Part shown: positions 141 to 50,815 of the stretch, one piece after another | Layout of the letters: each line of letters starts with the position of its first letter | Numbering within the stretch: the stretch's first letter is position 1 | Source of the DNA: a virus | Lineage: Duplodnaviria; Heunggongvirae; Uroviricota; Caudoviricetes | Virus record (IMG/VR): IMGVR_UViG_3300034082_001974 | DNA: 64,000 nt | Strand: one strand, 5' to 3' | Notes under the pieces: generated by a model | Told to the model about the DNA's origin: nothing | What the model saw: the letters and a program-made list of their open reading frames with translations, nothing else | Database searches by the model: none | Position numbers and translations under genes: made by a program

Positions 141-166
141 CCTCGTGTGCCAGTTCTCAAACTGGT
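141..166 (-). promoter_or_regulatory. conserved ~26-nt intergenic element (minus-strand consensus GGACACTTNAAGAACCGGCACAAGG)
   Basis: copy 1 of >=24. Confidence 0.6.
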
Positions 167-336
167 CTGCTGTTCTTTGCTGCATGAATCAATTCTTCTT
201 CTGACAGAATGTCAATGTAACCATTCGGATAAACACTGCAGAAGTGATCCAGTGCATCATCTGCTTCATCATAAGAAGCATAAACCGCCAGAGTCTCATA
301 TGCATCTGGAGTGATCTCAACGATGTAGTGTTCCAT
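157..336 (-). CDS. hypothetical small protein (~59 aa)
   Basis: minus ORF found manually; stop codon lies inside conserved intergenic element at 141-166; upstream element and -10-like box at 395-422/370-380. Confidence 0.4.
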   Translation of the reverse strand: MEHYIVEITPDAYETLAVYASYDEADDALDHFCSVYPNGYIDILSEEELIHAAKNSRPV

Positions 337-394
337 GAGAGGTGTCCTTTGGTTGACTCTGTAATCATAAGGTACCTACAGGGTCTTCTAGGTG

Positions 395-422
395 CCTCTT
401 GTGCCAGTTCTTAAAGTGTCCA
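395..422 (-). promoter_or_regulatory. conserved intergenic element
   Basis: copy 2. Confidence 0.6.
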
Positions 423-756
423 ATTCTTATTTCCAAACACCAAAATATGACTCCTATGTGATAAGATTAAAATACAAAATCTTATCAGGAATCGTCCTGT
501 TATTTTTTATTTCTTACACTTCTCATCCTAACCGATCTGTTAGAGACTTATAATATGATGTTTCACTGTTTGATTTATTATGTCCTGTTTTATTACGCCG
601 GAGACAGGATATTATGACCAACTCCCTCTTTTTATAATGATCAATAACACATAATGTATCATAAGATCATTTGGTTCTTTTAAGATTGTTACCTCTTAGT
701 GCCGTAGCAAGAGTTCAATTGCTTATCAGAATTAATGTTCTTATGTATCTATTTAG

Positions 757-900
757 TCACATAAACTCTTCAATGAAGTAATCAACTGTAATATCATGAA
801 TCTTACAGAATTCTTCTACATCATCAGGTAGTTTCTCTAAGATCTCTGATGCTGTAAACTTAACATAGAGATCATAGAATTGGGTTTCATCAAACGCCAT
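757..900 (-). CDS. hypothetical small acidic protein (~47 aa)
   Basis: minus ORF found manually; preceded by TTGACA/TAGACT-like sigma70 box ~955-985. Confidence 0.3.
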   Translation of the reverse strand: MAFDETQFYDLYVKFTASEILEKLPDDVEEFCKIHDITVDYFIEEFM

Positions 901-1047
901 AAGTGTTTCTGAAGGGGTTTAGAGGAACTTAAAGATCTTATAGAATACAATTATTCTCAACCGGGACAAACCTAGTCTAGCAGTAACCTGATGGTCTTGT
1001 CAAGCCTTATGTTAATATTACGTAACATAAGGCTCTTATGCTATCTC

Positions 1048-1326
1048 TTACCCCATCACCAACTCAGGAGACTTAGTAATCCTATGACTAAACATAGCAG
1101 TGCATTCAATACTGTAAGGATAAGACTGAGAGTTAAACTCTTGAATCACCTCCCAAGTCTCATGTACACACTTAATGATCACTGCACCATCCATTTCAGG
1201 ATCTTGAAGGTGTGCATTATAAAAATTACAAGCATATCCAATGGAAGAAGAACAAGAATGTTGATTGAAGAAACCATGCTCGTTGTTCCCAAAACCAATC
1301 ACCTTATAAAGCGTTTGAGTAGTCAT
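1048..1326 (-). CDS. hypothetical protein
   Basis: track ORF; conserved element 1385-1410 plus -10-like box and AAGGA RBS upstream. Confidence 0.55.
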   Translation of the reverse strand: MTTQTLYKVIGFGNNEHGFFNQHSCSSSIGYACNFYNAHLQDPEMDGAVIIKCVHETWEVIQEFNSQSYPYSIECTAMFSHRITKSPELVMG

Positions 1327-1384
1327 CGGGTGTCCTTGGGTTACCTGAGTATCTTACACGCCTTCTAGGGTCTTACAGGCATCT

Positions 1385-1410
1385 CTCAGACGGTTCTTAA
1401 AGTGGCACAG
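1385..1410 (-). promoter_or_regulatory. conserved intergenic element (variant)
   Basis: copy 3. Confidence 0.5.
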
Positions 1411-1532
1411 CATACCAGCATAAGGACTTTCTTATGCATTATAGTTCTTATACAACCAAACGAGGTCTGATGTAGGACCAGATGTAAATGATCGTCACTG
1501 AACCTACCAAAAAATAATAAGAATTAAAACAT

Positions 1533-2155: not shown

Positions 2156-2183
2156 GATTTTAGACCAGTTTGCGAGGTGTCAC
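2156..2183 (-). promoter_or_regulatory. conserved intergenic element (variant GACCAGTTTGCGAGGTGTCAC)
   Basis: copy 4. Confidence 0.45.
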
Positions 2184-2380
2184 ATTGCCAGAATAAGATT
2201 TGCGACACGCTCTTCTCCAGGAAGTTCCTCCAAACGATTTGAAACCTCCTCAAACTGTTGCATGATGTTTAGATAATATGCAGAGAGATGTGGATTCTCT
2301 TCATATACAGACTGTTCCTTATCACACAATACACTTATAATGTCTAGAAGTTCACCAGATGTCAGGGAGATGGAAGTCAT
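2180..2380 (-). CDS. hypothetical protein
   Basis: track ORF; stop inside variant conserved element; TTGACA-18-TATATT box upstream (2408-2437). Confidence 0.5.
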   Translation of the reverse strand: MTSISLTSGELLDIISVLCDKEQSVYEENPHLSAYYLNIMQQFEEVSNRLEELPGEERVANLILAM

Positions 2381-3050: not shown

Positions 3051-3053
3051 AAA

Positions 3054-4119: not shown

Positions 4120-4942
4120 AATACGGATTTGGTATAACTTTTAACATATCACAAACTGTACGGAATCCTCCACTAATTTGACATGCCCTACGATAATTAT
4201 CTGCCTCACTTGAATTCAAATATTCAATAATATCATCTGCTTCTTCTTTTGAATCCACTAAAATGTACATACAATTATCAGACACACCATATTGCCCGTC
4301 ATCATAATACGGATAGAAGTTTCCACCTTCACGGAACACAACCTTTTTCTTTGTTGCTTCTGGTTCTTCTGTCTTATTATAGCATAGATTCAGTTCTCCT
4401 GATGCGGTAGTCTTGTTGATACTCACAAATGCACCATCAAAGGCAATCATTGGATCATAAGTCTTTGAACGGCAAATGTGTCGCCATGCTCTTCCAATTT
4501 GTGGGTTCAGACGAGGAATTGAGGAATCAGTATTCAGGTATTTCTGAAGTAAGTCGAGACTATGATTGGGAATAAAGGGATAGTCACGTAAATCAACATC
4601 AGTCCAGTCTTCAGATTCTTCAAAACGCACCTGTGTCGGTCCTGTACGGGGTGTCTTGTGAAGAACGTACCAGTCATAAGGTGTTCCTGCCTTAAAGGTC
4701 TTTTTACCCTCTACGGCGGAGTGAATGGAGAGTTTCTTTACCTGATTGTCAATTAGCAGATGGCGATGTGGATTATTTGGTTTTCTTAGGCCAGGTGGAT
4801 GTACGGAAATCATCAGACCATTATCTTTTGTCAGTTCATATTGAATCTGAGCAAAATCCCCATAGGTACTACTACCAGTATTATGAGAATCTAAAGAATA
4901 TGGTGGATTGGATATTGTTACATCAAATTGAATTGCGGTCAT
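4103..4942 (-). CDS. DNA methyltransferase fragment, N-terminal part (motif IV NPPY at residues 12-15) of a split beta-class MTase
   Basis: NPPY motif at N-terminus; ORF terminates 17 nt into next frame at GTCAAAAAAGG. Confidence 0.65.
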   Translation of the reverse strand: MTAIQFDVTISNPPYSLDSHNTGSSTYGDFAQIQYELTKDNGLMISVHPPGLRKPNNPHRHLLIDNQVKKLSIHSAVEGKKTFKAGTPYDWYVLHKTPRTGPTQVRFEESEDWTDVDLRDYPFIPNHSLDLLQKYLNTDSSIPRLNPQIGRAWRHICRSKTYDPMIAFDGAFVSINKTTASGELNLCYNKTEEPEATKKKVVFREGGNFYPYYDDGQYGVSDNCMYILVDSKEEADDIIEYLNSSEADNYRRACQISGGFRTVCDMLKVIPNPYYVKKG

Positions 4943-4991
4943 TGGAGTTGTTTATTATAGGGTCGTCTGAGATGTTCCGTGTGTCAGTTGT

Positions 4992-5666
4992 TCAGGTGTC
5001 CATGAAGGACAAAATACTTTCACTTTGCCCATAGATTCTGTTTTTAGTCATTTCAAAATATTCTGTGTTCATTTCAATTCCAATGAAGTTTCTACCACAC
5101 TGCTTAGCAGCAACACCAATCGCACCACTCCCCATACAGGGATCCAATACTGTATCACCAACATTTGAACTTGCCTCAATCAACCTTGACATAAGTTTCA
5201 CTGGTTTAGGTGTGGGGTGATCCTTGTAGTGTTCAATAGAATTACGCCATACGGCAGACTTACAATGCTCATTAAACACCGCTCCAGACTTCTTGGCAAA
5301 TACACAATTTTCAATGCTCGATAACCAGATATGTTGCCCATTCATCGGAGAAGGATTAGTTTTTTCCCATATACAGTGCCTTACAGATAATCCATGATTT
5401 ATCAGGTGACTGCGAATATGTGAAACTTGAACCGAACCACAGAAAATATAAATGCTTCCAGAAGTCACACGAACAACTTCATCGATAAAGTCATCCAGTG
5501 GAAATGTAATAATATCTGCATGACTCTTATCGAGGTTTCTTAATCCACCACTTTTACGATTTACCTCATCATATGGTATATCCGTAAGAGTAAGAGAAAT
5601 GCTCCCGTCAGCAAGTGATGGGAGCACATTCATACAGTCTTCATTGTATAATTTTACATTATTCAT
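4992..5666 (-). CDS. beta-class N6-adenine/N4-cytosine DNA methyltransferase (pfam01555-like; DIPY ... VLDPCMGSGAIG)
   Basis: motif IV DIPY near N-term, motif I FxGxG near C-term, IGIE tail. Confidence 0.8.
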   Translation of the reverse strand: MNNVKLYNEDCMNVLPSLADGSISLTLTDIPYDEVNRKSGGLRNLDKSHADIITFPLDDFIDEVVRVTSGSIYIFCGSVQVSHIRSHLINHGLSVRHCIWEKTNPSPMNGQHIWLSSIENCVFAKKSGAVFNEHCKSAVWRNSIEHYKDHPTPKPVKLMSRLIEASSNVGDTVLDPCMGSGAIGVAAKQCGRNFIGIEMNTEYFEMTKNRIYGQSESILSFMDT

Positions 5667-6291: not shown

Positions 6292-6399
6292 TGTTGGTCT
6301 TAGGAGATTAGTGCTGATTACCTTGTTATTATAGCAGCAGTTTAGAGACTTGCTTAGGTCTGTTGTGTCAGTTCCTAATGCACCGCAGGAGGTGAGAGT

Positions 6400-6606: not shown

Positions 6607-6764
6607 TTTTCCTCAGGATAAAGTTTCCAACCATCAGCATAAAGTCCAAGTTCTTCACATCGGACTTCATAGGCAATTCGTTGAAGTAGACGCAGATCCA
6701 TATCTTCCACTGATTTGATGATAGAACGGCGGATTTGCTTGTCCTGGACCGTATCGGTGACCAT
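6603..6764 (-). CDS. hypothetical small protein (start trimmed to MVTDT...)
   Basis: element 6823-6848 and CCCTATAATACA box at 6788-6800 lie inside longer track ORF; ATG at 6764 fits leader spacing. Confidence 0.4.
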   Translation of the reverse strand: MVTDTVQDKQIRRSIIKSVEDMDLRLLQRIAYEVRCEELGLYADGWKLYPEEN

Positions 6765-6822
6765 GTGTGGTGTTCTTGATACCTCTGTATTATAGGGGCA
6801 CACAGGAGCATGTGGAGTGGTG

Positions 6823-6848
6823 TGTGTGCCAGTTTGAGAAGTGGATCA
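6823..6848 (-). promoter_or_regulatory. conserved intergenic element
   Basis: copy 5. Confidence 0.55.
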
Positions 6849-9757: not shown

Positions 9758-10002
9758 TCCCTCAAATCAATTACTTCATACCAATCACAATTCCTATCAT
9801 ACTCTCCACCTTTTGCGACATAGGTTGTGTGAGTGGATTTGATTTCTCCTTTGTTTTTACCTTTGGAATAATAATCGTGAATTTCTTTAAACTCTACTTG
9901 TTCCCGTGCTTCCTTTTCAGTTTCATAGCACCCAATCCAGTCTCCAGTGCCGCTTTCTGGATAATAATAATCTCCTACAATCAATAAAAATGGTTTTCTC
10001 AT
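9742..10002 (-). CDS. hypothetical protein
   Basis: track ORF; element 10059-10086 and TATACT box upstream. Confidence 0.5.
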   Translation of the reverse strand: MRKPFLLIVGDYYYPESGTGDWIGCYETEKEAREQVEFKEIHDYYSKGKNKGEIKSTHTTYVAKGGEYDRNCDWYEVIDLRDWAER

Positions 10003-10058
10003 TTCAGTTCGTTGGTTGTTCTTTCATAGTATAGTATCCCACACACCATCCCAGAGCA

Positions 10059-10086
10059 CCCCTTGTGCCGGTTCTTCAAGTGTCTC
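10059..10086 (-). promoter_or_regulatory. conserved intergenic element
   Basis: copy 6. Confidence 0.6.
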
Positions 10087-12560: not shown

Positions 12561-12901
12561 TCCACACCCTCACTCATAAGAACTTTAAGAGCATCCCATT
12601 CATCCGTAGTCAGCATATCTTTCACTTTCTCTATAACTTCTTTACTTGATTCTCGTTTCTGAATTTCTTCTGTGGTATAATACTGAGCGGGTTTTCCATC
12701 TGCATCACCATAAGGAATTGCATCATACCAACCTTGGTTTGGGAATAGTTTACATAATGCGCCTATATTTACATACCTTGGTCTCTCATTTTCTACAATA
12801 TCTTGAATATGAGACCACGCAACATCTTCTGCGGTCTCACTGTCATCAGCAACTACCATTACATCGTAAATAACAGAGATGGGATAAAGTTTTTTCGTCA
12901 T
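12557..12901 (-). CDS. hypothetical protein
   Basis: track ORF. Confidence 0.55.
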   Translation of the reverse strand: MTKKLYPISVIYDVMVVADDSETAEDVAWSHIQDIVENERPRYVNIGALCKLFPNQGWYDAIPYGDADGKPAQYYTTEEIQKRESSKEVIEKVKDMLTTDEWDALKVLMSEGVE

Positions 12902-13002
12902 TTGGAGTTCCTCTTGTGTGTATGGGAAATAGAATTGGGAGTAGATGGATTTGCACCATCATTGCTAAGTAGGAGTTCTTCTGCGATTTGTTGATTAGTC
13001 AT
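12898..13002 (-). pseudogene. 34-aa ORF starting MTNQQIAEELL, remnant duplicate of 5' end of 12151..12396
   Basis: ~30-bp direct repeat TAGGAGTTCTTCTGCGATTTGTTGATT at 12360-12396 and 12966-13002. Confidence 0.3.
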
Positions 13003-13003: not shown

Positions 13004-13501
13004 TCAGTTCTCCACCACTTTGATTTCTTGAGTGTAAGAACTTCTATTTACAAAGCAGTCATCAAGCACTTCAGGTTCAGAATAATACTCCACATATCCT
13101 TCTTCTGATGCTTCAAACCCATTTTCTTCACAACACATAAAATACTCTTCAGGAGTATAAATCACAGTGCGAATAATCTTCACAAGTTTTAGATTGGGAT
13201 AGTTCTTCTCTTCCCTCTTGAGACGGTCAATCTCCTTCTGCATTTCTGCAATCTGATTTTCCAGTTGTTCGTATTTTTTCATAGGTTTGATTTCCTCAAT
13301 GTGAATGATGTCTCCTGCGGTGGGTTCATCGGAATCTAACTCAAAACCATCATAGGTATGCTGACACTCATAATCACCTTCATCATTTTTATAATAATAA
13401 GGGTTGCCTGTAGCATTCTTTGTTATTTTACCTTCACAAATACATCCATTCCTCAAAGTCACTCGGACATTCTTATCAACAAACTGTGAAAGGTCAATCA
13501 T
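13004..13501 (-). CDS. hypothetical protein (N-terminal domain paralogous to 32470..32982)
   Basis: track ORF; element 13557-13583 and CCTATAATACACTCATACACA box upstream. Confidence 0.55.
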   Translation of the reverse strand: MIDLSQFVDKNVRVTLRNGCICEGKITKNATGNPYYYKNDEGDYECQHTYDGFELDSDEPTAGDIIHIEEIKPMKKYEQLENQIAEMQKEIDRLKREEKNYPNLKLVKIIRTVIYTPEEYFMCCEENGFEASEEGYVEYYSEPEVLDDCFVNRSSYTQEIKVVEN

Positions 13502-13556
13502 TGTGGTTCTGTGTGTATGAGTGTATTATAGGGTATTATGGACGGTTGTGGAGTTC

Positions 13557-13583
13557 CCTTGTGACGGTTCAAAGAGTGTCCTA
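13557..13583 (-). promoter_or_regulatory. conserved intergenic element
   Basis: copy 7. Confidence 0.6.
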
Positions 13584-15670: not shown

Positions 15671-15892
15671 TCAGTTCTCCTTGAAGAGTTTGTAGATGGC
15701 ATCAGCAATAGCAAGTGCTTCTTCCTTTCCCATACAAATATGTTGAATTCGTTTATCACCTCGTTCAGTATCTTCTTCCCAATAAGAAATGGTGCATCCA
15801 TCGCATCCCCCATCAAGGTGAGTATCCTCTACATTATACCAAAAATCTTGGTGTTGTTGAATGCGAACTTGGTTTGTGATTTCAATAGTCAT
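15671..15892 (-). CDS. hypothetical protein
   Basis: track ORF; element 15951-15976 plus TATAATACACTCATACACA box upstream. Confidence 0.5.
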   Translation of the reverse strand: MTIEITNQVRIQQHQDFWYNVEDTHLDGGCDGCTISYWEEDTERGDKRIQHICMGKEEALAIADAIYKLFKEN

Positions 15893-15950
15893 TTGGAGTT
15901 TGTCTTGTGTATGAGTGTATTATAAGGCATCTGGTGACCCTGTGGAGGGT

Positions 15951-15976
15951 GTTTGTGCCGGTTTCTCAAGTGTCCC
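15951..15976 (-). promoter_or_regulatory. conserved intergenic element
   Basis: copy 8. Confidence 0.6.
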
Positions 15977-16163
15977 CAACAGAGTTGAGAGCAAGACCAA
16001 TTCTACTAATTTTATTTTCTAAACTATTGTAATACTGATAAACATAATTATCATCAAGATTATCATTTTTTGCTTTCCTCACAAGAGCAAGCAAATCGTT
16101 AATCTCATAATTACTAAAGGGTTCTACCGTCCATTCACCGATAGATACAACTTTTTTAGTCAT
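15966..16163 (-). CDS. hypothetical protein
   Basis: track ORF; element 16220-16246 plus TATAATACATTCATACACA box upstream. Confidence 0.5.
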   Translation of the reverse strand: MTKKVVSIGEWTVEPFSNYEINDLLALVRKAKNDNLDDNYVYQYYNSLENKISRIGLALNSVGDT

Positions 16164-16219
16164 CAGGTGTCTTTGTGTGTATGAATGTATTATAGGGCAT
16201 CTGGTGCCCCTGTGAAGTA

Positions 16220-16246
16220 CCCTTGTGCCGGTTTCTCAAGTGTCCT
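16220..16246 (-). promoter_or_regulatory. conserved intergenic element
   Basis: copy 9. Confidence 0.6.
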
Positions 16247-16461: not shown

Positions 16462-16485
16462 AATCTCTGGGTTCTACAAGTGTCC

Positions 16486-20611: not shown

Positions 20612-20802
20612 TTTGTTTTCTCCGTGAGTTTTAGATACTGATATTCAACCTTACATTTTGCTGGTTGTTCCATACAGTAGATGATACCTTTGTTTCTTCC
20701 AGTATCTTCTCCTATATTAAAACCTATAGAATATACCCCAGCAAGACAAGCAGCAAAAGCAGAAACTACTGGAGCAACCCACCAATCATCATTGTACATC
20801 AT
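20608..20802 (-). CDS. hypothetical small membrane protein
   Basis: track ORF; element 20856-20880 plus TGCTATACT box upstream. Confidence 0.5.
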   Translation of the reverse strand: MMYNDDWWVAPVVSAFAACLAGVYSIGFNIGEDTGRNKGIIYCMEQPAKCKVEYQYLKLTEKTK

Positions 20803-20855
20803 TCATTCCTTGGTTTCTCACAGTATAGCAGAAGGCACACCACCTCACCAGAGAC

Positions 20856-20880
20856 AGTGTGACGGTTCTTCAAGTGTCCT
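20856..20880 (-). promoter_or_regulatory. conserved intergenic element
   Basis: copy 10. Confidence 0.6.
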
Positions 20881-26577: not shown

Positions 26578-26603
26578 GTGTGCCGGTTCTTAAAGCGTCA
26601 CTT
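26578..26603 (-). promoter_or_regulatory. conserved intergenic element
   Basis: copy 12. Confidence 0.6.
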
Positions 26604-27416: not shown

Positions 27417-27667
27417 AATTAAAAAAAAGTTAGTTAGTTAAGGAAAAAATCAATCAGAAGTTAAACCAGCGTAAATAAATGCTATTGCAACAAAAAGCAA
27501 AAGAGCGAGAGGAATCATTTTGAGAAAGAACAACACTGGAAGTCCTCTCAAAAGAAGAATGTAGAGTAGAGCAGATACTCCTACTAAAATACCAAGAATT
27601 CGTACTACCACATTGGAGTTTTCAAATCAACAAACATAGTATAGGGTGAATTGGTCGGTTATGCAAG

Positions 27668-27696
27668 GGGTCTTGTGCCAGTTCAACGAGTGGCAA
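27668..27696 (-). promoter_or_regulatory. conserved intergenic element
   Basis: copy 13. Confidence 0.55.
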
Positions 27697-29065: not shown

Positions 29066-29123
29066 TTGAGGTCTTTGTGTGTATGAGAGTATTATAGGGC
29101 ATCAGGACACAAAGTTCAAGTGC

Positions 29124-29150
29124 CTCTGTGACGGTTCAAGGAGTGTCCTC
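29124..29150 (-). promoter_or_regulatory. conserved intergenic element
   Basis: copy 14. Confidence 0.6.
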
Positions 29151-30354: not shown

Positions 30355-30676
30355 TAGTTTTGTCTCCTTTAAGTTGATTACAAGTGTAGCACATTGGTTG
30401 AAGATTTTCTAAATCATTTGACCCACCTTTTGATTTGGGGAAAATATGGTCTACAGTCAGTGGGAGAAAATCTTCAGTATAAACATCCCAGTGTTTGGAT
30501 TTACCTTTGTCTATTCCTCTTGCAAGAATAGTTCCTTCAATTCCACAGGAGACGCAGATACATCCTTTTTCAGCGAATACCTTCAGTCGTCTATGTGTTT
30601 TGAAAGGAGAATCTTGAAGAGATGAAATGTCTTTGATTGTATCCAGAGTGTATGAAAATTGTGGAATGAAAGTCAT
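30332..30676 (-). CDS. HNH endonuclease (small, zinc-finger type)
   Basis: [29 protein letters not shown] plus CxxC pairs. Confidence 0.7.
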
Positions 30677-30700
30677 TGAGGGTGCGTTCTTACCCTACTA

Positions 30701-30946
30701 TCATATGGCATCCTGTGAGGCAGTGGAGTCGTCTTGGGACAGTTCTTCAAGTGTCTTTTTGATTTCTTTGAGATTATTCAGGTGTTGCTTTTTCTCTTCC
30801 AAATCAGATTGTAGTTGTGACCTGAACTGATATTCAGATTTATGAATGGGTTCGTAGTTTATTTCTTCCTTAAGGTCAAGAGAAAGTTCTTCCAAGTATG
30901 ATTCAAATTCTTCTATGATATGATTGAGAGTATTAAGGGGTTTCAT
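30701..30946 (-). CDS. hypothetical coiled-coil protein
   Basis: track ORF. Confidence 0.5.
   Translation of the reverse strand: MKPLNTLNHIIEEFESYLEELSLDLKEEINYEPIHKSEYQFRSQLQSDLEEKKQHLNNLKEIKKTLEELSQDDSTASQDAI
30732..30757 (-). promoter_or_regulatory. conserved intergenic element
   Basis: copy 15. Confidence 0.55.
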
Positions 30947-31889: not shown

Positions 31890-32153
31890 TTAATTTACTA
31901 ATAGCAGGAAGGCATCCAAGATCTTTCGCATCTTAGACTTTGGTTTCTCATATGGTCTCTGTTCCCATTCAAGACCATCGGGACCACATTTACCATCTGA
32001 TTTTCTTAGTTTTTCACAGTCTTCTCTCCATGTAGTAACTTCACCTTTCACATAATCAGTTGTATCATATGTGAATTTACCACACCAGGCAAAATAGATA
32101 GTATCTGGATTGATACAGTGCTTGCAAGTAATGCAGGATTTGATTTCAGACAT
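31890..32153 (-). CDS. hypothetical Cys-rich protein
   Basis: track ORF; element 32207-32232 plus TATACTAAACAAGTCAACCAAACA leader. Confidence 0.5.
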   Translation of the reverse strand: MSEIKSCITCKHCINPDTIYFAWCGKFTYDTTDYVKGEVTTWREDCEKLRKSDGKCGPDGLEWEQRPYEKPKSKMRKILDAFLLLVN

Positions 32154-32173
32154 GATGTGTTTGGTTGACTTGT

Positions 32174-32473
32174 TTAGTATAGGATGTCTTGATCGTCTGT
32201 GAGAGACCCTTGTGCCAGTTGATCAGGTGACCTCTTGGCATTCATTTCATCTTCAATTTTACCACGCTCATAGCATCCACTCAGGTACAGTGGAGCAACC
32301 AGAATGCCCATAAGTCCAGCACCACTCGCAAAACCCCTAATATCATTACTCTTATTCAGTCCTGCAAGTCCACCCATAAGAAGAAATGCGATGAGAAGAG
32401 CAGTACCTGGATGATCACCACAGGAATCAAGATGTCCAATTCCTTTGATTGTGCGACGAATTGTTTGAATCAT
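32174..32473 (-). CDS. hypothetical membrane protein
   Basis: track ORF; hydrophobic. Confidence 0.45.
   Translation of the reverse strand: MIQTIRRTIKGIGHLDSCGDHPGTALLIAFLLMGGLAGLNKSNDIRGFASGAGLMGILVAPLYLSGCYERGKIEDEMNAKRSPDQLAQGSLTDDQDILY
32207..32232 (-). promoter_or_regulatory. conserved intergenic element
   Basis: copy 16. Confidence 0.55.
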
Positions 32474-32982: not shown

Positions 32983-33391
32983 CAGGAGTGACTACAGTTT
33001 CATTTCCGTCATACTCATCAATTTTGTATATTCCATCAACTTCCTCAATTTGAAGGTCCGCATGATCACCATTTGCTTTCTTTCCAAGTTCTTCTACAAC
33101 TTGAATTAGAGCAGGATCATGACGAGAGACATTCATATAATACCAAGTTTGCTCAGAGTGTGCTTTATTATAAGCAACCCGTTCATCCATAGACATAGCA
33201 CAGAACTCGTTTGAGCTTTTATGTTTGATACGTTCTGCAGGAGAAACTAACCAAACAGTAAACATACCCATGATTTTAGGTTTATTGTCTTCAATCCAAA
33301 CTTGTTGCCCTTTGATGTCCCAATAACGTTGACATGCTTCTTTGCTGAGACCGAAACCACCGTAGCAGTTGTTGTAAACGACTTTTGCCAT
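32951..33391 (-). CDS. hypothetical protein
   Basis: track ORF; element 33448-33473 plus CCCTATACTAT box. Confidence 0.55.
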   Translation of the reverse strand: MAKVVYNNCYGGFGLSKEACQRYWDIKGQQVWIEDNKPKIMGMFTVWLVSPAERIKHKSSNEFCAMSMDERVAYNKAHSEQTWYYMNVSRHDPALIQVVEELGKKANGDHADLQIEEVDGIYKIDEYDGNETVVTPGGCDWQYADN

Positions 33392-33446
33392 GAGTGCTGT
33401 ATGTGTACTTTAATAGTATAGGGTGAATTGAATCAGTTGTCAGTGG

Positions 33447-33647
33447 TCAGTGTGCCAGTTCAATAAGTGTCACATCATAATCCTGCCAGTGAGAGGTGAA
33501 GTAGTTATAATGACTGTCAACGTCTTTTTGATTCATTTCAAGTTCTTTACCCCATCGCTTACACAACCAGTTATTCTCAACGATTAGATAAAACTCATAA
33601 GTCTCTTCATTCTCAAAATCTTTAACTTTGAAGGATTGAGTAATCAT
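33447..33647 (-). CDS. hypothetical protein
   Basis: track ORF. Confidence 0.45.
   Translation of the reverse strand: MITQSFKVKDFENEETYEFYLIVENNWLCKRWGKELEMNQKDVDSHYNYFTSHWQDYDVTLIELAH
33448..33473 (-). promoter_or_regulatory. conserved intergenic element
   Basis: copy 17. Confidence 0.55.
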
Positions 33648-37197: not shown

Positions 37198-37308
37198 TTG
37201 GTTTAATGTTTTCTTTATTTAGAATCAATTAAGTTTTTTAGGTTTGCTGCACTCATTACACACAGTAGAAAATCCGTACTTAAAGCGTTCGATTTTTTGA
37301 AAGTGTCC

Positions 37309-38676: not shown

Positions 38677-39365
38677 TGAAACCTCTTTAGAACCTTATTG
38701 TTAATATCATAAAGACCAAGAGCGCCATCAGGAGAACCACACTCTGGATCCAATACAATAGAGTTTTCATTCATAAAAACTGTATGATAATGACCCGAAA
38801 CAAGTACATAATCTTGTGTTCGGTTGTTCTTCCACCATTCAATTCTTTGCTTTTTTTCTCGCTGAATTGGACCGTAGAGCATTGTAGACTTTGTGGATCT
38901 ATTCAATCTATCTTCATATATTAGACAATAATCATCATACTCAGGAACTTCAATACGACTTGAAAAGTATGCGTGTGCAACTCGGTATTCTATTTGATTT
39001 TTATCCTGAAATACCACACCATAAGGCATTGTATTAAGAAACTCATACAATTCTTCCAAAGAAATATTAGAGTTCTCAAAGTCATTTAGAGTTCTTTGAA
39101 GATCTTCACCAATAAAAACGTTATTACCTTTTAAATGACGGAGTAATTTGTTTTGATGATTGGATTGAAGACAAATCGCAGAGTTATTCTCAATTTGTTC
39201 TTTGACCTGATTATATACGGAAACGGAGTTAGTGTTTTCTACACGAGAATCAAATAGGTCTCCCAGAAACAATGGAGTTAAATTGTGATTAATACAATAC
39301 TCCAGTGCAGATTTCAGTAAATGTGCCTGAGAATGCACATCACTGATTAATGCAAATGACTTCAT
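38673..39365 (-). CDS. calcineurin-like metallophosphoesterase
   Basis: ISDVHS, GDLFDSR, SNHQ, VSGHYH motifs; terminator then TATAAT upstream. Confidence 0.65.
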   Translation of the reverse strand: MKSFALISDVHSQAHLLKSALEYCINHNLTPLFLGDLFDSRVENTNSVSVYNQVKEQIENNSAICLQSNHQNKLLRHLKGNNVFIGEDLQRTLNDFENSNISLEELYEFLNTMPYGVVFQDKNQIEYRVAHAYFSSRIEVPEYDDYCLIYEDRLNRSTKSTMLYGPIQREKKQRIEWWKNNRTQDYVLVSGHYHTVFMNENSIVLDPECGSPDGALGLYDINNKVLKRFQ

Positions 39366-39400
39366 TGAATTTTTCTTGGTTATGAAAACATTATACCATA

Positions 39401-39426
39401 AAAAAGAGGGTCTTGAGAACCCTCTG
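39401..39426 (-). terminator. intrinsic terminator AGAGGGT-TCTCAAG-ACCCTCT + T6, immediately followed by TATAAT
   Basis: 7-bp stem, T6; sits between conserved element (39423-39447) and -10 box (39391-39396). Confidence 0.6.
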
Positions 39427-39447
39427 TGTGCCAGTTTGAAAAGTGGT
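39423..39447 (-). promoter_or_regulatory. conserved intergenic element
   Basis: copy 18 (followed by terminator). Confidence 0.55.
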
Positions 39448-39452
39448 TTTAA

Positions 39453-41111: not shown

Positions 41112-42262
41112 TTCAAGTTACCCCACATCCAACGAGCACTTTCAATTTTCGTTTGGGAACTCAAAGATTTTCCAATCATTTTTATCAATACCTCTTGAGA
41201 ACCTTTACCCGCTTTCATTTCATACATTATAGGAACATATTTAGTCAGCAAGATTTTCTGGACGAACTCAACAGCGAAGTCTTTCTTATCAGGATACTTT
41301 GTATTTCCAGTCACAAAGAGTTCCGCCAAATCACAGGCAACGTCTTCCAGACCCACCCAGAATGCCCTCTCAAAAGAGCGTAGGCGTTGAGCGTCCTCTG
41401 GTGTCAGCAGCGGCACCAAATCGTCTACAGAGTCGTCTAGGATGGTCTGAAGGACATTCTTCTCCTGACTGATGCTGTCTTTGGAGCGGTGGCGAAGCAC
41501 ATAATCATCTGCCTTGATCTTAATCATATGACCAGAATCAAAACGAATTACCACACCCTCCAAGTCTTCCCATTTACGGATGTGTTCTACAATCTTGGTG
41601 ATGTCTTTGTCATCACCAGCAATTGCTTTGACTATAGGAATATTCCATGATTCGGTATATCGCTTCATAATATCATAGGGAACATATTCACCAGTATTTA
41701 AATAACGAATGCCAGTCAGAATCAGTTGATCTTCAGGATAATCAATGACAATACGATTCTTACGAGAGCACCATTCAAAAATAGGAGTGGTTCCCTTTTG
41801 GATACATTTATTAATAAAGGTGGAATAGTGTGATTTATCAGAAATGAACGCTTCTGCTTGTTCAGAAATATCAGTAACACCTGCCTTGGTTGCGAGGAGG
41901 AAACCCTCTTTGGTGGAAATATGACGAATCATGGATCCATCAAGTTTCTCTAGAACAACGTGAGGTTCATACAGATTGATTCTATTCAGTTGAGTTTCTT
42001 CCTTCTCACCAGCATTAAAGAATTTATTGTATGGTCTTGAAATAAGAACTCCATTATCATCAAAAATCAAACCACGACATTCCCGACGAACAGAAGAACC
42101 TACAGGGTCATTAGAGTCCCACTTAAAGGTTTCCTCAAGTGCGACCATATACTGAATTACGGTGTAACCTTCTTTCTCCATTACCCGGAACTCATCTCTA
42201 CCTTCAATATGAGGAAGAACGTCATGAATGGTTTTAATTTCTGGGAAGTCGTAATTCATCAT
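41102..42262 (-). CDS. RNA ligase, Rnl1 (T4 RnlA)-like
   Basis: motif I EKLDGS, motif IV EGVVIRF, motif V KIKADDY; 386 aa; terminator then TGCTATAAT upstream. Confidence 0.7.
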   Translation of the reverse strand: MMNYDFPEIKTIHDVLPHIEGRDEFRVMEKEGYTVIQYMVALEETFKWDSNDPVGSSVRRECRGLIFDDNGVLISRPYNKFFNAGEKEETQLNRINLYEPHVVLEKLDGSMIRHISTKEGFLLATKAGVTDISEQAEAFISDKSHYSTFINKCIQKGTTPIFEWCSRKNRIVIDYPEDQLILTGIRYLNTGEYVPYDIMKRYTESWNIPIVKAIAGDDKDITKIVEHIRKWEDLEGVVIRFDSGHMIKIKADDYVLRHRSKDSISQEKNVLQTILDDSVDDLVPLLTPEDAQRLRSFERAFWVGLEDVACDLAELFVTGNTKYPDKKDFAVEFVQKILLTKYVPIMYEMKAGKGSQEVLIKMIGKSLSSQTKIESARWMWGNLKWN

Positions 42263-42289
42263 TACTTTGATTTATAAGGTCATTATAGC

Positions 42290-42316
42290 AAAAAAGGAGG
42301 GCGTTGAAACCCTCCT
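42290..42316 (-). terminator. intrinsic terminator AGGAGGG-loop-CCCTCCT + T6, followed by TGCTATAAT
   Basis: 7-bp stem, T6; between element 42313-42339 and extended -10 42282-42290. Confidence 0.6.
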
Positions 42317-42339
42317 TGTACCAGTTTAAAAATTGTCTA
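42313..42339 (-). promoter_or_regulatory. conserved intergenic element
   Basis: copy 19 (followed by terminator). Confidence 0.55.
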
Positions 42340-43251: not shown

Positions 43252-43530
43252 TCAGTCTATAGTAGTAAAACGGTCACTCCAAAGAATGTAGAACCTTTCG
43301 CTAAGGTTCTGAAGCATGGTATATCGTTGAACGATTTCGCTGTCAATTGGAAGATCAACCATACCATAAGGACAAGCAAAATCAAAAGAAGTTGACGCTT
43401 GCATGAGAACTTCATTAATCAGTTCGTGTTCGGCAAAGGTCAAGAGAACTTGAATGTCACCTTGAGCAATGTGAGAATCTTCGTTGGTGTCTTCAACAAC
43501 CGGATAGTTGGGAGTAGGAAGAGAAATCAT
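43252..43530 (-). CDS. hypothetical protein
   Basis: track ORF; element 43587-43610 plus CTCTATAATAACC box. Confidence 0.5.
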   Translation of the reverse strand: MISLPTPNYPVVEDTNEDSHIAQGDIQVLLTFAEHELINEVLMQASTSFDFACPYGMVDLPIDSEIVQRYTMLQNLSERFYILWSDRFTTID

Positions 43531-43586
43531 AATTTGATTTTGTTTACAAGGTTATTATAGAGTGTTTGAGTGAGAAGTGAGAGCAT

Positions 43587-43610
43587 CCTTGTGCCAGTTT
43601 AGCAATCGCC
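43587..43610 (-). promoter_or_regulatory. conserved intergenic element
   Basis: copy 20. Confidence 0.55.
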
Positions 43611-43772
43611 ACTCTCCAGGCAGGCACTGACATCCTGAATTTCCTTTGCCTTGCGCGTGAGTTCCTTAAGATGCAGTGAGAGGATGTTGAGATCGTCTTC
43701 TGTGCGTCCCATAAGAGCATCATAGACTCTCTCAAAGGCCGCTGCGGTTTGTAATGTGAGTTGTCTTTCCAT
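43599..43772 (-). CDS. hypothetical small coiled-coil protein (~57 aa)
   Basis: manual ORF; stop inside conserved element; preferred over track ORF 43544..43735 in other frame. Confidence 0.4.
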   Translation of the reverse strand: MERQLTLQTAAAFERVYDALMGRTEDDLNILSLHLKELTRKAKEIQDVSACLESGDC

Positions 43773-43807: not shown

Positions 43808-44317
43808 TCATTTTTGACGAACCTGTTCTACTTTAGTTTGGTTACCATCAAGATTATATTCTTTATTTAAATCTTTATTCCACACAGTTCCGTGAATAAA
43901 ACCAACGCCACCAAAAACAATAGCGGCGATCAGAATGGCGGCACCTCTTTTAACTTCATCTTCAGTGGCATCATCATTATCAGCGAAATCAGAAATGTTA
44001 AGTCCTACAATTTTCTGAGTCAACCAAGTTGCACCAGCACCATAAGCAGTCATAAGAATCAAAGGAGTAAAATACAAAAGAAGGGCTGAACCTCCAAGAA
44101 GTCCCATCAACCAAATACCACCAGATCCACCACTAAAGTCTAGACTGCTTCCACCAGAATTTTCACGAATCTCACGGAGGTTGATGATTTGTTCTGCACC
44201 ATAAACATTTTGAAGTTGTTCTTTTGCTCCACCAGAGGTGCTTGCACCAACTTCAATGTCAACATAACCAGATTTACTCCCAAGCCAGCATTTTGCCGTC
44301 CAACGTCGTGATGCCAT
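43808..44317 (-). CDS. hypothetical Gly-rich membrane protein
   Basis: track ORF; TM segments; terminator then TAGTATAAT upstream. Confidence 0.55.
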   Translation of the reverse strand: MASRRWTAKCWLGSKSGYVDIEVGASTSGGAKEQLQNVYGAEQIINLREIRENSGGSSLDFSGGSGGIWLMGLLGGSALLLYFTPLILMTAYGAGATWLTQKIVGLNISDFADNDDATEDEVKRGAAILIAAIVFGGVGFIHGTVWNKDLNKEYNLDGNQTKVEQVRQK

Positions 44318-44352
44318 AATAAGATTCCTTTGAGTTACTGTGTAATTATACT

Positions 44353-44377
44353 AAAAAAGGGTTGCTTGTGACAACCC
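44353..44377 (-). terminator. intrinsic terminator GGGTTG-TCACAAG-CAACCC + T6, followed by TAGTATAAT
   Basis: 6-bp stem, T6; between element 44378-44403 and -10 44345-44350. Confidence 0.55.
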
Positions 44378-44403
44378 CCTGTGACAGTTTTTAAATTGGC
44401 TCA
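44378..44403 (-). promoter_or_regulatory. conserved intergenic element
   Basis: copy 21 (followed by terminator). Confidence 0.55.
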
Positions 44404-47256: not shown

Positions 47257-47460
47257 TCATTTGTCAATCCTCCAGTGCTCATTACCTTCCCGTTGTATCC
47301 AAAAAAAATATTTCCTATTTATTGAAGCAAGAAAAATCATATTACCATTTTCCTGCTCCACTTCGCAAGCGTGAAAAGATTGCATAATGTTTGAGAACCT
47401 GTTCTTTGCTTTGGAACTCAAAGGAGTCACATTTACAAATTTTTTCTTGGTCACAATCAT
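47257..47460 (-). CDS. hypothetical protein
   Basis: track ORF; variant element 47517-47542 plus CTTGTATAATATACTC box. Confidence 0.5.
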   Translation of the reverse strand: MIVTKKKFVNVTPLSSKAKNRFSNIMQSFHACEVEQENGNMIFLASINRKYFFWIQREGNEHWRIDK

Positions 47461-47484
47461 TTGGTTGGTTGCTTTATGAGTATA

Positions 47485-47688
47485 TTATACAAGATTTTTG
47501 GGTTCTTTGGTGAACCTTGTGACACCTGTAGGATTGTCCTCACGGTGCTTCTTGATAAAAATGTTTGCCTGGCGAACCGTGCTCACATCTTCCAGTTGCT
47601 CACCATTGTAAATAATGACAAATCTCTTTCCCCAAGGGACTGTTGCATACCCATCCTCAAGAATAAATCCTCCCGTCTTACTTGCCAT
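47485..47688 (-). CDS. hypothetical protein
   Basis: track ORF. Confidence 0.45.
   Translation of the reverse strand: MASKTGGFILEDGYATVPWGKRFVIIYNGEQLEDVSTVRQANIFIKKHREDNPTGVTRFTKEPKNLV
47517..47542 (-). promoter_or_regulatory. conserved intergenic element (variant)
   Basis: copy 22. Confidence 0.45.
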
Positions 47689-48256: not shown

Positions 48257-48825
48257 TATTCAGTGAGAAATTGTTTTTCGTAGTTTAAAAGTTCTTGTGG
48301 TGTTTCTATGTAGTTACTGACAGAATCTGTTGGTTTATGATACCAGTTTCTACCGTAGTTTCGCTTCATCAGTTGAATATCTAAATGTTGATACTTTTTA
48401 TCAGTAGGAACATAAATCTTGAAGTCACCTTTTTGATTTGATGTCAGTAATGAGAGTTGGCGATTCTCTTCTGAGGTGATATCAACAGTTGTACATGCAA
48501 TGTAAAAGAGTTTCTTAAATTGATCATATTCATTCAAGTAAATCTCTGAGTGATCCATAATCATTCTTCCCATAAATTGAGGAGAATAGCAATGATCTTT
48601 ACAGAGTGGCCATTTGGAATCCTCTTGTTTTTTCTGAAGAGCAGTGAGTGTAATGTACCCTGAAGGAATGGAGAGAGCGTGTACTAGATCGTAATAAGGT
48701 CTTGTAACTCCTCGTAGTACGTCTTTGTCGTTTAGTTTTGACCTCCATAGATCTAGATTTGATGTGAGTGCATTGAACGCAATGAGACAGTAAGTATCAA
48801 TACGATATTGAGTTGTAGGTTTCAT
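48256..48825 (-). CDS. hypothetical protein
   Basis: track ORF 189 aa. Confidence 0.55.
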   Translation of the reverse strand: MKPTTQYRIDTYCLIAFNALTSNLDLWRSKLNDKDVLRGVTRPYYDLVHALSIPSGYITLTALQKKQEDSKWPLCKDHCYSPQFMGRMIMDHSEIYLNEYDQFKKLFYIACTTVDITSEENRQLSLLTSNQKGDFKIYVPTDKKYQHLDIQLMKRNYGRNWYHKPTDSVSNYIETPQELLNYEKQFLTE

Positions 48826-48828
48826 GAA

Positions 48829-50064
48829 TTACTTTTTGATTACGTCAGCAACGAAGTTACCCTTTACAAATACCTCGTCAACCACATTCTGCACACGGCG
48901 AGCAGTTGCAATGCCAACTTTGTTATTGTACACGGGAATGACCACTTTGCCAAATGGTTTGATGTAGTTAGAGAAATCACCTGGTTCCAGTTCACCAGAC
49001 TTCATACGGGCAGTATCATCAGGATTCACCCGAATGCAACGACCAATGCTCTGAACAGTAGAGATAAAGTTTTGTTGACGAAGAAAGATACAAGACTGAA
49101 TACCAGGAACACTGATACCCTCGGTGAGAATACCAATATGTAGAACAACAAACTTACGATTGGAGTCAGCACCATACTCACTCAACGTATCCAGAAACTC
49201 AGTACGTGAAACCTTACGCTTACCCACATATGCTCCCAACTTGGAGGTAATATGCAGAACTTCATAACCATTGTCGTGCATTTCCTCCATAAAGGAAGTT
49301 TCAGAGAGCATCTTTATCATTACTTTGGTGTTCGGTGCCACCACCAGAACCTTGTTCATATCATCATCATTAAAAATAGTATCACATAGAGTGTAGAAGT
49401 CACGTTCGTGTGCAGTTTCTTTGTCACGGAATGAACCAACTTCCGTCACCGCAACCACAGGAGGAAGAATACTACCATTGAGAAGCAGTTCAGGTGCCTT
49501 GACATTATGAATCTTGGAACCAAATACCTCAGCATTATTGTTACCGGGTTTTGATGCAACTTGACTGAACTTAGGAGTTGCAGTGAGAGAATAGAAGTTC
49601 TTTGCAGTCTTACTGATTGCCTCTACAGCATCAAAGAACTTACCATTTACGGCATTATGACATTCATCCAAGTAAACAACATCAATGTCCAGTTCTGCTT
49701 TTACAATTTTATCCAGAGAATGATAAGTGGTAAAGATGAGTTTGTGACCTTCTGTCTTCTCATGCCAGTAAGCAAGTTCTAGAAAGTCAGTGATACGAGT
49801 GTGCTTGGTTTCACCACTATGAATGTGGGCGATAGAAGCATTATCAATAAACTTCTCAAACTCTTCGCTGAGTTGCTGGCAAAGAACTAGTTTCGGAGCA
49901 ACCACTAGAATGGTCTGGTTACTTTCACCTTCGGTGAAACGATGCTTCGCATCGGCAATAATCATAATAGTTTTACCCGCACTAGTAGGAGCGACTGTAA
50001 GCATCCTAGAGTGCTGTCGCATCAGTCCAAAGACTTCTTGCTGGTGAGGACGCAAATCAAACAT
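48829..50064 (-). CDS. SF2 DExH-box helicase (UvsW-like), start trimmed to MFDLRPHQQ
   Basis: LRPHQQ, APTSAGKT (motif I), DECH (motif II), TATP (motif III); track ORF's 41-aa N-terminal extension covers element 50122-50148 and TGCTATAATGA box. Confidence 0.7.
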   Translation of the reverse strand: MFDLRPHQQEVFGLMRQHSRMLTVAPTSAGKTIMIIADAKHRFTEGESNQTILVVAPKLVLCQQLSEEFEKFIDNASIAHIHSGETKHTRITDFLELAYWHEKTEGHKLIFTTYHSLDKIVKAELDIDVVYLDECHNAVNGKFFDAVEAISKTAKNFYSLTATPKFSQVASKPGNNNAEVFGSKIHNVKAPELLLNGSILPPVVAVTEVGSFRDKETAHERDFYTLCDTIFNDDDMNKVLVVAPNTKVMIKMLSETSFMEEMHDNGYEVLHITSKLGAYVGKRKVSRTEFLDTLSEYGADSNRKFVVLHIGILTEGISVPGIQSCIFLRQQNFISTVQSIGRCIRVNPDDTARMKSGELEPGDFSNYIKPFGKVVIPVYNNKVGIATARRVQNVVDEVFVKGNFVADVIKK

Positions 50065-50121
50065 GGGTAGTTTCCTTGTGTACGAGATCATTATAGCAGT
50101 AAAAAAGTCCACTAGGAGGTT

Positions 50122-50148
50122 CCCAGTGGACGGTTTCTTAAGTGGTTC
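50122..50148 (-). promoter_or_regulatory. conserved intergenic element
   Basis: copy 23. Confidence 0.55.
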
Positions 50149-50205
50149 AGAGGCTTTAGAGATACAATTGTTTCTCAAAAGGAACAAACCTATTCTACAC
50201 AGTTT

Positions 50206-50631
50206 TTATAGGGTTGTCAAGTAATTTAAATATTCTTGATAAAGTTCATTTTCTCTTTTATATGCTGCTATTTCATGTGATTGTTGATAATACTCCAAAT
50301 CTTCCATACACTCACCCATATAATACCTTTTGGAGGACTTGAGTTTCAGTTCCCCCTTTACCCACTGTAGAATATGTTCACACTCATGTAAAAGTGTTTT
50401 CACATAGGTTTCCTTATCCAAGTGTGTATCCAGTTCTATTAGGAAACTTCTTGGACGATATGATCCTTCAGCAATATCACAATATCCATAAGCACCGTCT
50501 TTTTTCAAACTTCGGTGAAGAACTTCAATATCCAGTTTGTGTCGAGGAAGATACTCAGACACAAACCAACACACTACTTTTTTGCAAAGACGCTTGGAAT
50601 AACCGTATCCAGTGGTTTGTAGAAAAATCAT
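50206..50631 (-). CDS. small HExxH zinc-metallopeptidase-like protein
   Basis: LLHECEHILQW HExxH motif; 141 aa. Confidence 0.45.
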   Translation of the reverse strand: MIFLQTTGYGYSKRLCKKVVCWFVSEYLPRHKLDIEVLHRSLKKDGAYGYCDIAEGSYRPRSFLIELDTHLDKETYVKTLLHECEHILQWVKGELKLKSSKRYYMGECMEDLEYYQQSHEIAAYKRENELYQEYLNYLTTL

Positions 50632-50733
50632 TTAGAAAGAATTGAGAATGGTGTAGGTAACACGAGTTCCCCAGTTCATAAGAATCATAAAGGATCCTAC
50701 GAAAAGCAGTCTCTCAAGGGTTGAAAAGGTCAT
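50632..50733 (-). CDS. hypothetical 33-aa hydrophobic peptide
   Basis: manual ORF; TAAATG junction; element 50789-50815 and TTTATAGTA box upstream. Confidence 0.3.
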   Translation of the reverse strand: MTFSTLERLLFVGSFMILMNWGTRVTYTILNSF

Positions 50734-50788
50734 CAGGTCTCTTGGGTTGCTCACATACTATAAAGCACCTTGCAGGTGATCCTGAAGG

Positions 50789-50815
50789 TGCTTGTGACGG
50801 TTTGTGGAGTGGTTC
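50789..50815 (-). promoter_or_regulatory. conserved intergenic element
   Basis: copy 24. Confidence 0.55.

Follow-up and report, generated by a model that had tools for sequence, protein, structure and literature searches.

T4-like cyanophages account for the death of a large proportion of picocyanobacteria in the sea and in fresh water. The early genes of two of these phages, Syn9 and P-TIM40, are reportedly controlled by a novel regulatory element, described by Doron et al. in 2016, and middle genes are said to be driven by host-like promoters; these elements are said to be abundant and conserved among T4-like cyanophages. Here, we analyze a 64,000-nt stretch of viral DNA (Caudoviricetes; IMG/VR record IMGVR_UViG_3300034082_001974), hereafter referred to as the window, in which a 25-nt intergenic element recurs in a single orientation and at a fixed distance upstream of a TATAAT-like -10 box. 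The pattern of its conservation, in the window and in related phages, makes it likely that these units serve a T4-like cyanophage as early-type promoters, each contained in a compact terminator-promoter cassette, and that the dyad formed by the element recruits RNA polymerase via a dimeric protein.

Cyanomyoviruses have none of the genes alt, modA/B, motA and asiA, and how they control early and middle transcription was called unclear in a 2010 review (PMC2984593). Promoters are not mentioned in the genome paper of S-SRM01 (PMC8557907), and our literature search by sequence string and by keyword found no paper describing the motif. Puxty et al. noted one stem-loop in S-PM2 and judged PeSLs to be sparse in this phage (PMC4503421); the stem-loop in question falls within an S-PM2 cassette of the kind described below. 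PeSL cassettes, which have been described in RB49/phi1, T4/PST and KVP40/nt-1 (Arbiol 2010, PMC2839356; Comeau 2014, PMC4122927), are the closest structural analogue of the units in the window. Both are repeated intergenic motifs in hyperplastic regions, both lead from the stop of an upstream gene through a promoter and a stem-loop, in the window a putative terminator in some of the copies, to a Shine-Dalgarno sequence and an ATG, both are variable in the position of the stem-loop, and both lie at breaks in gene order between relatives. They differ upstream of the -10 box: in PeSLs, an AT-rich tract precedes a near-consensus -35 box, whereas the window has a specific, G+C-containing dyad and mostly weak -35 boxes.

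The literal 25-mer, with up to three mismatches, matches the window only five times (0 expected), and the family was recovered with a Hamming scan and an iterated position weight matrix (PWM). At a PWM score of at least 15, the minus strand holds 23 non-overlapping sites. The plus strand has no such site, its maximum score being 14.0; 20 shuffled sequences yielded zero or one site each. As the PWM was trained on 22 of the sites, the count of 23 is partly circular. The copy at 50123-50147 raises the total to 24, and every copy sits between minus-strand open reading frames (ORFs). A generalized dyad, GMCAST-N6-ASTGKCACA, gives 30 matches against 0.87 expected, with palindromic copies matching on both strands. 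A preliminary description of the window had reported at least 24 intergenic sites in one orientation, and had suggested aligning the copies, tabulating their spacing and comparing the two strands. These analyses uphold it: they yield a family of 24 with punctate conservation and a fixed distance to the -10 box, and place all PWM sites on the minus strand, between ORFs.

Within the 24 copies, C4, A13, A14 and G17 are invariant; C15, C19 and A22 are kept in 23 copies and C21 in 22. Two bases alternate at each of the positions M3, Y16 and K18, and positions 9-12 are unconstrained. Such punctate conservation looks typical of a protein-binding site. Aligned with its relatives in other phages, the window 25-mer is a local version, with a degenerate left arm, of a 24-bp palindrome shared across the family, TGTGMCAST-N6-ASTGKCACA: it retains the right arm and the inner part of the left arm and has lost the outer left arm, often to a stop codon. 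Compared with the dyads of Syn9, P-TIM40 and Syn10, the left arm is degenerate (GGACAC instead of TGTGMCAS), and the inner bases read CACTT...GAAC instead of the commoner CAGT...AAGTG. The window copies further differ in being joined to stop codons, and in many cases to terminators.

Between the end of the 25-mer and the -10 hexamer (TATAAT, TATACT, TATGAT, TATAGT or TAAGAT) lie 26-27 nt in 20 of the 24 copies and 25 or 28 nt in three others; a single copy (4977) has 17 nt. This bears out the fixed spacing of the preliminary description; counted from the 3' end of ...CACA in the 24-bp dyad, the distance amounts to 29-30 nt. A start codon could be assigned for 22 copies, and in 20 of these the ATG follows 19-27 nt past the -10 box, the outliers being 11 nt (copy 4977) and 34 nt (copy 26576). 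The genes that follow are small ORFans, which lends some indirect support to expression early in infection. A true TGn extended -10 box is found in only six of the 24 copies, so that the earlier 'frequently extended' does not hold. Likewise, a -35-like hexamer with at least four of six matches, 16-18 nt from the -10 box, is present in only about 10 of the 24 (e.g. TTCACA, TCCACA, CTGACA or TTGAAC); the near-consensus -35 box of PeSLs is thus not a common feature, and the -10 boxes are good. If the -10 hexamer is taken as -12 to -7, the dyad would span about -65 to -42, with its center near -53.5, and would abut the -35 region, in agreement with the position of about -65 to -40 estimated before. 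Both of the conserved leader subtypes described previously are present, and the alignment of the copies, the folding of their spacers and their spacing support the proposed modular unit of upstream element, optional terminator, -10 box and leader.

The upstream gene ends, mostly with TGA, directly before the element (TGA-GGACAC) or within it (ACT-TGA-AG), as had been noticed earlier. The spacers of 10 of the 24 copies fold with z < -2, the other copies having no significant hairpin; in about half of the copies, a hairpin is formed by the 3' end of the element (GGCACAC) or by the spacer. A classic terminator hairpin with a T-run is found at four sites, namely the three that had already been recognized at 39.4, 42.3 and 44.4 kb and a fourth at 50.1 kb, which corrects the earlier count. 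Strong hairpins without a perfect T6 are located at 26.6, 25.7, 50.8 and 0.14 kb.

To place the element among other viruses, the window itself has to be placed. Its larger proteins include a T4-type RNA ligase 1 (RnlA), a UvsW-like helicase and an SPFH protein; glycosyl-, methyl- and sulfotransferases and cyanophage-type glycosyltransferase/methyltransferase (GT/MT) and 2-oxoglutarate (2OG) genes are also encoded. The best tblastn matches of the helicase are all Synechococcus and Prochlorococcus myoviruses, the nearest being the freshwater Synechococcus phage S-SRM01 with 48% identity, and megablast of 9-17 kb against GenBank phages returned no near-identical DNA relative. Judged by this protein set, the helicase matches and the lack of near-identical phage DNA in GenBank, the window can be assigned to a divergent T4-like cyanophage (Kyanoviridae), of which it represents the small-gene (hyperplastic) region.

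More than 119 IMG/VR contigs contain the core CACTT-N3-GAACYGKCACA. Among the matches listed, 132 non-redundant sites were evaluated for spacing and 133 for the left flank. A -10-like hexamer follows 29-30 nt after ...CACA across the 132 sites, whether palindromic or not, and TTGACA, where present, lies 6-7 nt past the element, despite unrelated spacers. The five bases of the left flank, which were left unconstrained in this search, read (T/G)(G/A)(T/G)G(A/C), with TGTG in 35% of the 133 sites; the left flank thereby completes a palindrome with the right arm. This full 24-bp palindrome strengthens the hint at a dimeric binder that the preliminary description had drawn from internal half-sites. 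A group of palindromic contigs ('group b') that might have represented a different phage type also belongs to the Kyanoviridae, with Kyano_Gp96 and DUF6267. When the 80 best loci of Gp96 orthologues were chosen regardless of the motif, most of them carried a dyad, TG(A/C)CA(G/C)T...A(G/C)TG(G/T)CACA, in intergenic DNA that has otherwise diverged. The distance from this dyad to the ATG is fixed, at 83-85 or 109-116 nt; a minority of the loci have a different, S-SM2-type motif. Homologues of Gp96/gp90 are also found ~1.3-1.7 kb from the left end of ~40-kb Pseudomonas phage genomes (H161-H164, Pseudomonas and Xanthomonas phages), and a position so near the genome end would fit an early role in host takeover.

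The search of other phage genomes that had been suggested along with the element was similarly productive, with matches in S-SRM01, S-PM2, Syn9, P-TIM40 and further cyanophages. S-SRM01 has more than 25 copies of the dyad-spacer-(-10) unit, S-PM2 has seven, several of them in its 'ORFanage' region, and DSL-LC03 has about five. The unit also lies upstream of the gp90/Gp96 orthologue in S-RSM4, S-RIM8, S-ShM2, Syn19, P-TIM40 and Syn10. In Syn9, five dyads are located at 47.2-53.0 kb, each exactly 29 nt before a -10 box, and one of them precedes the UvsW-like helicase gp75, as in the window. In relatives, the palindrome lies outside any hairpin and away from stop codons; tandem dyads occur at two loci (L065 and L103). 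By contrast with these T4-like phages, the T7-like cyanopodoviruses P-SSP7 and Syn5 have no dyad in their first 8 kb. The palindromic motif GTGCCACTTGTTGAACTGGCAC was also encountered in two Nostoc assemblies (contigs L144 and L152 of metagenome-assembled genomes, MAGs), in both at the end (3') of a gene resembling an integrase, where it may be part of a prophage or another mobile element.

As the preliminary description had already suggested, the layout does not resemble T4 middle or late promoters. No TGCTT-type box, as in MotA-dependent middle promoters with their MotA box at -30 in place of the -35 box, is conserved in the spacers, and cyanomyoviruses have neither motA nor asiA (PMC2984593). 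T4-type late promoters have TATAAATA at -10 and no upstream element; the cassettes carry TATAAT, TATACT or TATGAT, and the T4-late-type TATAAATA sites of the window are separate from them, in other gaps. CRP/FNR sites (TGTGA-N6-TCACA, 22 bp, at -41.5 or -61.5) have similar arms, but those of the dyad are 14 bp apart and centered near -53.5; the right arm holds the TGGCAC of a sigma-54 promoter (TGGCAC-N5-TTGC, -24/-12), but no TTGC follows at the required distance; and the consensus sites of NtcA, LexA and HLR1 do not agree in sequence or spacing. UP elements of strong phage and rRNA promoters and of T4 early promoters resemble the element in their position (-40 to -60) and in the boost that it is presumed to give to early promoters, but they are A+T-rich and non-palindromic, and the invariant G/C positions and dyad symmetry of the window element rule out this class. 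Finally, the late promoters activated by P2 Ogr and P4 Delta have a TGT-N12-ACA dyad near -55, where a phage zinc-finger activator contacts the alpha subunit of RNA polymerase. They likewise constitute a phage promoter family with a dyad in the mid -50s upstream of a poor -35 box and a usable -10 box. Their sequence and arm spacing differ, however, P2-type promoters belong to the late phase, and the window showed no Ogr-like gene.

The search for a binding protein identified none. The top families of a Pfam scan over the complete set of 149 window proteins include no obvious transcription factor. The only DNA-binding candidate seen is a 172-aa homologue of S-SRM01 gp130 (45093-45611, minus strand), whose C-terminal AbrB/MazE/SpoVT-like domain (a weak Pfam match, E = 3e-4) shares 54% identity with the gp130 domain; many cyanomyoviruses have small stand-alone versions (phrog_661). 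The gene is present in S-SRM01, DSL-LC03 and S-B68, but it does not track the motif, since S-B68 has the gene and no promoter-type motif in the 40 kb scanned, and S-PM2 shows the reverse. Accordingly, this protein does not bear out the phage transcription factor or sigma-appropriator that had been nominated as the reader of the element. Comparing Gp96 and the AbrB-like protein with solved structures gave nothing informative.

On the host side, an exact-pattern scan of 185,579 bacterial genomes (one per species) gave 33 matches, none of them in picocyanobacteria; the pattern was strict, so that hosts may still have degenerate sites. Most of the 33 belong to an unrelated-looking Acidobacteria site family beside GntR-type regulator genes. 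In five Acidobacteria MAG contigs (L123, L130, L131, L134 and L148), GTGACACTTnnnGAACTGTCAC lies 20-40 nt upstream of GntR-family genes, and these sites are probably an autoregulatory operator family that fits the search pattern by chance. The early regions of P-SSP7 and Syn5 are transcribed by the host RNA polymerase and have no dyad, which argues mildly against a host activator that is used by all cyanophages.

The cassettes also mark breaks in gene order. The closest relative of the window (L157) has up to 92% protein identity; its gene blocks between successive motifs map to 14, 13, 37, 28, 45-44 and 39 kb of the window, that is, to scattered regions, so that in this single relative compared the gene order is shuffled, with cassettes at the junctions. 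One orthologous cassette in L157 is near-identical except for a 5-nt swap confined to the free center, and in a more distant relative (L158) the right arm, a CCACA -35-like block and the -10 box persist. Other lineages have the same design with other upstream sequences. S-SM2 (L156, locus ~20000-24000) has repeated cassettes with GGGGGGTCGCnTAAAGCGTCCC-TATAGT and GGGGGGTCGCnTAAAGCGTCCCTATAGT, and S-B68 (L161, 1-16000) has a repeated cassette of TAAGTAATGTTAC followed by a GGGGGTTGA...CCCCC (G5/C5) hairpin, a T-run and TATACT. As these upstream sequences differ, the early-promoter cassettes look lineage-specific.

We propose that a dimeric DNA-binding protein would occupy the dyad and recruit or stabilize the host sigma-70-type RNA polymerase at otherwise weak promoters, and that small early phage genes would thereby get priority. 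The binder may come from the host; perhaps more likely, the phage brings or makes it. At the same time, the element supplies the stop of the upstream gene or overlaps it, its 3' end often doubles as the 5' arm of an intrinsic terminator in the spacer, and the high similarity between cassettes probably makes them homology patches for the exchange of gene modules, as in PeSLs. The conservation pattern and the dyad symmetry suggest a DNA site that is read by a dimeric protein, as does the spacing, which is maintained between phages with helicases that are only ~43% identical; the same three observations argue against a by-product of recent duplication.

Several points weigh against this proposal. 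Transcription starts and early timing in this phage rest on inference from sequence, and the search for a binding protein found none. With their degenerate left arm, the window copies make symmetric dimer binding less obvious than the relatives do, and class I and class II activators do not classically center near -53.5. In about half of the copies, hairpins include the 3' end of the element, so that it may have a role at the RNA level, and the identity of cassettes and leaders may stem partly from concerted evolution and not from selection for binding. Lastly, the identity of the dyad with the early element of Doron et al. 2016, although most likely, is a presumption. The finding is probably a new example of a kind of early-gene signal that has already been published. 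The dyad is a conspicuous repeated motif before the small-gene cluster of Syn9 and before the gp90 orthologue of P-TIM40, and the window copies likewise precede small-gene clusters and are distinct from host-like and TATAAATA promoters, so that the window presents a matching picture of three promoter classes.

Many of these observations could also be read without a binding protein, if the units were purely PeSL-type mobile cassettes. The 25-mer would then be kept by spread and homogenizing recombination, and its useful content would be multi-frame stops and the 5' arm of a terminator. The TGA stops built in at -3 and +7, the hairpins that use the GGCACAC end, the near-identity of leaders between cassettes and between phages, the mosaic gene order with cassettes at its junctions, the truncated remnants in the window, the block swap limited to the variable center of an orthologous cassette and the unrelated cassettes of the same layout in the S-SM2 and S-B68 lineages are all in line with this. 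What mobility would leave unexplained is the exact distance from the dyad to the -10 box, which is kept with unrelated spacers, -35 regions and leaders in phages with ~43% identical helicases, as well as the punctate conservation with its two-fold degenerate positions and the palindromes of relatives that lie outside hairpins and away from stop codons. We therefore consider it improbable that this is the whole explanation.

A protein might also bind the dyad to the opposite effect, as a phage early protein that shuts early promoters at the early-to-middle switch, the promoters working unaided until then. Tandem dyads, the small AbrB/SpoVT-like DNA-binding domain proteins encoded by these phages and the fact that some relatives have dyads before consensus TTGACA-N17-TATAAT-like promoters, which should need no activator, would suit such an operator. 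Against this, the site is upstream of the -35 box and does not overlap the core promoter, most window and marine copies have poor -35 hexamers, as in activator-dependent promoters, and the distribution of the AbrB-like gene, including its presence in S-B68 with no promoter-type copy in the 40 kb scanned, is at odds with that of the motif; repression is thus a doubtful reading. A signal in the RNA at the 3' end of the upstream transcript, be it a terminator-proximal or processing motif or a site for an RNase or a termination or antitermination factor, is very unlikely: although the element follows stop codons and in several copies precedes U-run hairpins, and although its palindromic arms could pair, a significant hairpin is lacking in more than half of them, the spacing is held relative to the -10 box and not to the hairpin, no Rfam family matches in the window, dyad positions 8/17 are often non-complementary with all four base combinations occurring, and the arms are conserved in sequence instead of covarying, which fits a DNA site.

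The coordinates of all cassettes and of their decayed relatives are given in Table 1.

Table 1. Promoter cassettes and remnants of cassettes in the window (all on the minus strand; z, folding score of the spacer)
Feature	Span	Element	-10 box	ATG	Further features
Cassette	83..167	143-167	TATACT 110-115	83-85	hairpin z=-3.1
Cassette	334..421	397-421	TATGAT 364-369	334-336	
Cassette, weak right arm	1324..1407	1383-1407	TAAGAT 1351-1356	1324-1326	
Cassette, short spacer	4940..5001	4977-5001	TATAAT 4954-4959	4940-4942	17 nt to -10
Cassette	6762..6846	6822-6846	TATAAT 6789-6794		-35-like TCCACA; hairpin z=-3.9
Cassette	10000..10085	10061-10085	TATACT 10028-10033	10000-10002	best consensus match
Cassette	13499..13581	13557-13581	TATAAT 13525-13530	13499-13501	-35-like TCCACA; orthologous cassette in L157 and L158
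Cassette	15890..15975	15951-15975	TATAAT 15919-15924		
Cassette	16161..16245	16221-16245	TATAAT 16189-16194		-35-like TTCACA
Cassette	20800..20879	20855-20879	TGc-TATACT 20822-20827		hairpin from element 3' end
Cassette	25656..25737	25713-25737	TGc-TATGAT 25681-25686		terminator-like hairpin z=-4.2
Cassette	26506..26600	26576-26600	TGc-TATAAT 26543-26548		terminator-like hairpin z=-5.3
Cassette	27638..27695	27671-27695	TATACT 27638-27643		near-perfect dyad
Cassette	29063..29148	29124-29148	TATAAT 29091-29096		-35-like TTGAAC
Cassette	30674..30756	30732-30756	TATGAT 30700-30705		
Cassette	32151..32232	32208-32232	TATACT 32176-32181		
Cassette	33389..33472	33448-33472	TATACT 33415-33420		full dyad, 0 mismatches on both strands; -35-like CTGACA
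Cassette	39363..39448	39424-39448	TGg-TATAAT 39390-39395		intrinsic terminator 39405-39425 + T6
Cassette before RNA ligase 1	42260..42338	42314-42338	TGc-TATAAT 42282-42287		terminator 42294-42317 + T6
Cassette	43528..43611	43587-43611	TATAAT 43554-43559		
Cassette	44315..44401	44377-44401	TATAAT 44345-44350		terminator 44356-44380 + T6
Cassette, weaker	47458..47539	47515-47539	TATAAT 47484-47489		
Cassette before UvsW-like helicase	50062..50147	50123-50147	TGc-TATAAT 50090-50095		terminator 50107-50131 + T6
Cassette right after GT/MT gene	50757..50814	50790-50814	TATAGT 50757-50762		hairpin z=-5.9
Decayed copy	2164..2184				left arm TGTGACAC good, right arm degraded
Right-half-only copy	6321..6375		TGc-TATAAT at usual distance		GGAACTGACACA
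Truncated copy	16465..16485		none		left half GGACACTTGTAGAAC fused to unrelated sequence
Truncated copy	37285..37308				left half GGACACTTTC only
Leader-only remnant	12899..12924	none	none		CATACACACAAGAGGAACTCCAAATG

The intergenic gaps without the element frequently hold TATAAATA sites, and a few have host-like TTGACA-N17-TAnAAT promoters (50154-50220, 43188-43216, 2408-2437 and 937-1003), so that three promoter-like classes coexist in the window. Two near-identical units of a terminator and a late promoter, GG(G)TGCTT(C/T)CGGGCACCTTTTCT...TATAAATA, are located at 38126-38173 and 17179-17217 on the minus strand and constitute a second, late-type cassette family beside the early-type one. The host-like promoters at 50154-50220 and 937-1003 (minus strand; TTGACA-N17-TAGAAT and TAGACT) are both followed by a shared stretch of ~45 nt, AGGTTTGTYCC..TTGAGAA.AATTGTAT, with 75% identity over the aligned region. 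This stretch, which matches no Rfam family, may represent a small RNA or a 5' leader common to both; indeed, no RNA family in Rfam was matched anywhere in the window. A gap between small genes contains tandem repeats of a 19-nt unit (x6.9, 94% matches, 2918-3049) and a 20-nt unit (x2.5, 3053-3103). At the other end, the last cassette begins exactly at the stop codon of a 414-aa GT/MT gene, and the long run of glycosyltransferase-, methyltransferase-, sulfotransferase- and 2OG-oxygenase-like genes at 50815-63077 has no early-type cassette.

In the window, about 24 early-type promoters from an uncultured lineage of freshwater type can be seen with clarity. As the palindrome is family-wide and kept at a fixed distance, the dyad-binding factor becomes directly testable, with a 24-bp probe and a list of critical bases. 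Furthermore, the union of element, stop codons and terminators in cassettes that are prone to shuffling links promoter architecture to the mosaic evolution of accessory genes. We also entertain, tentatively and as a rather unlikely extension, that the dyad is read by a dedicated factor of the cyanomyovirus family, delivered with the virion or made from the first transcripts, and not by a general host regulator, and that the lineages with the dyad, S-SM2 and S-B68 types have orthogonal systems of early-promoter recognition. If true, such a dedicated factor would explain how these phages launch an infection without the Alt/Mod/MotA/AsiA toolkit of T4.

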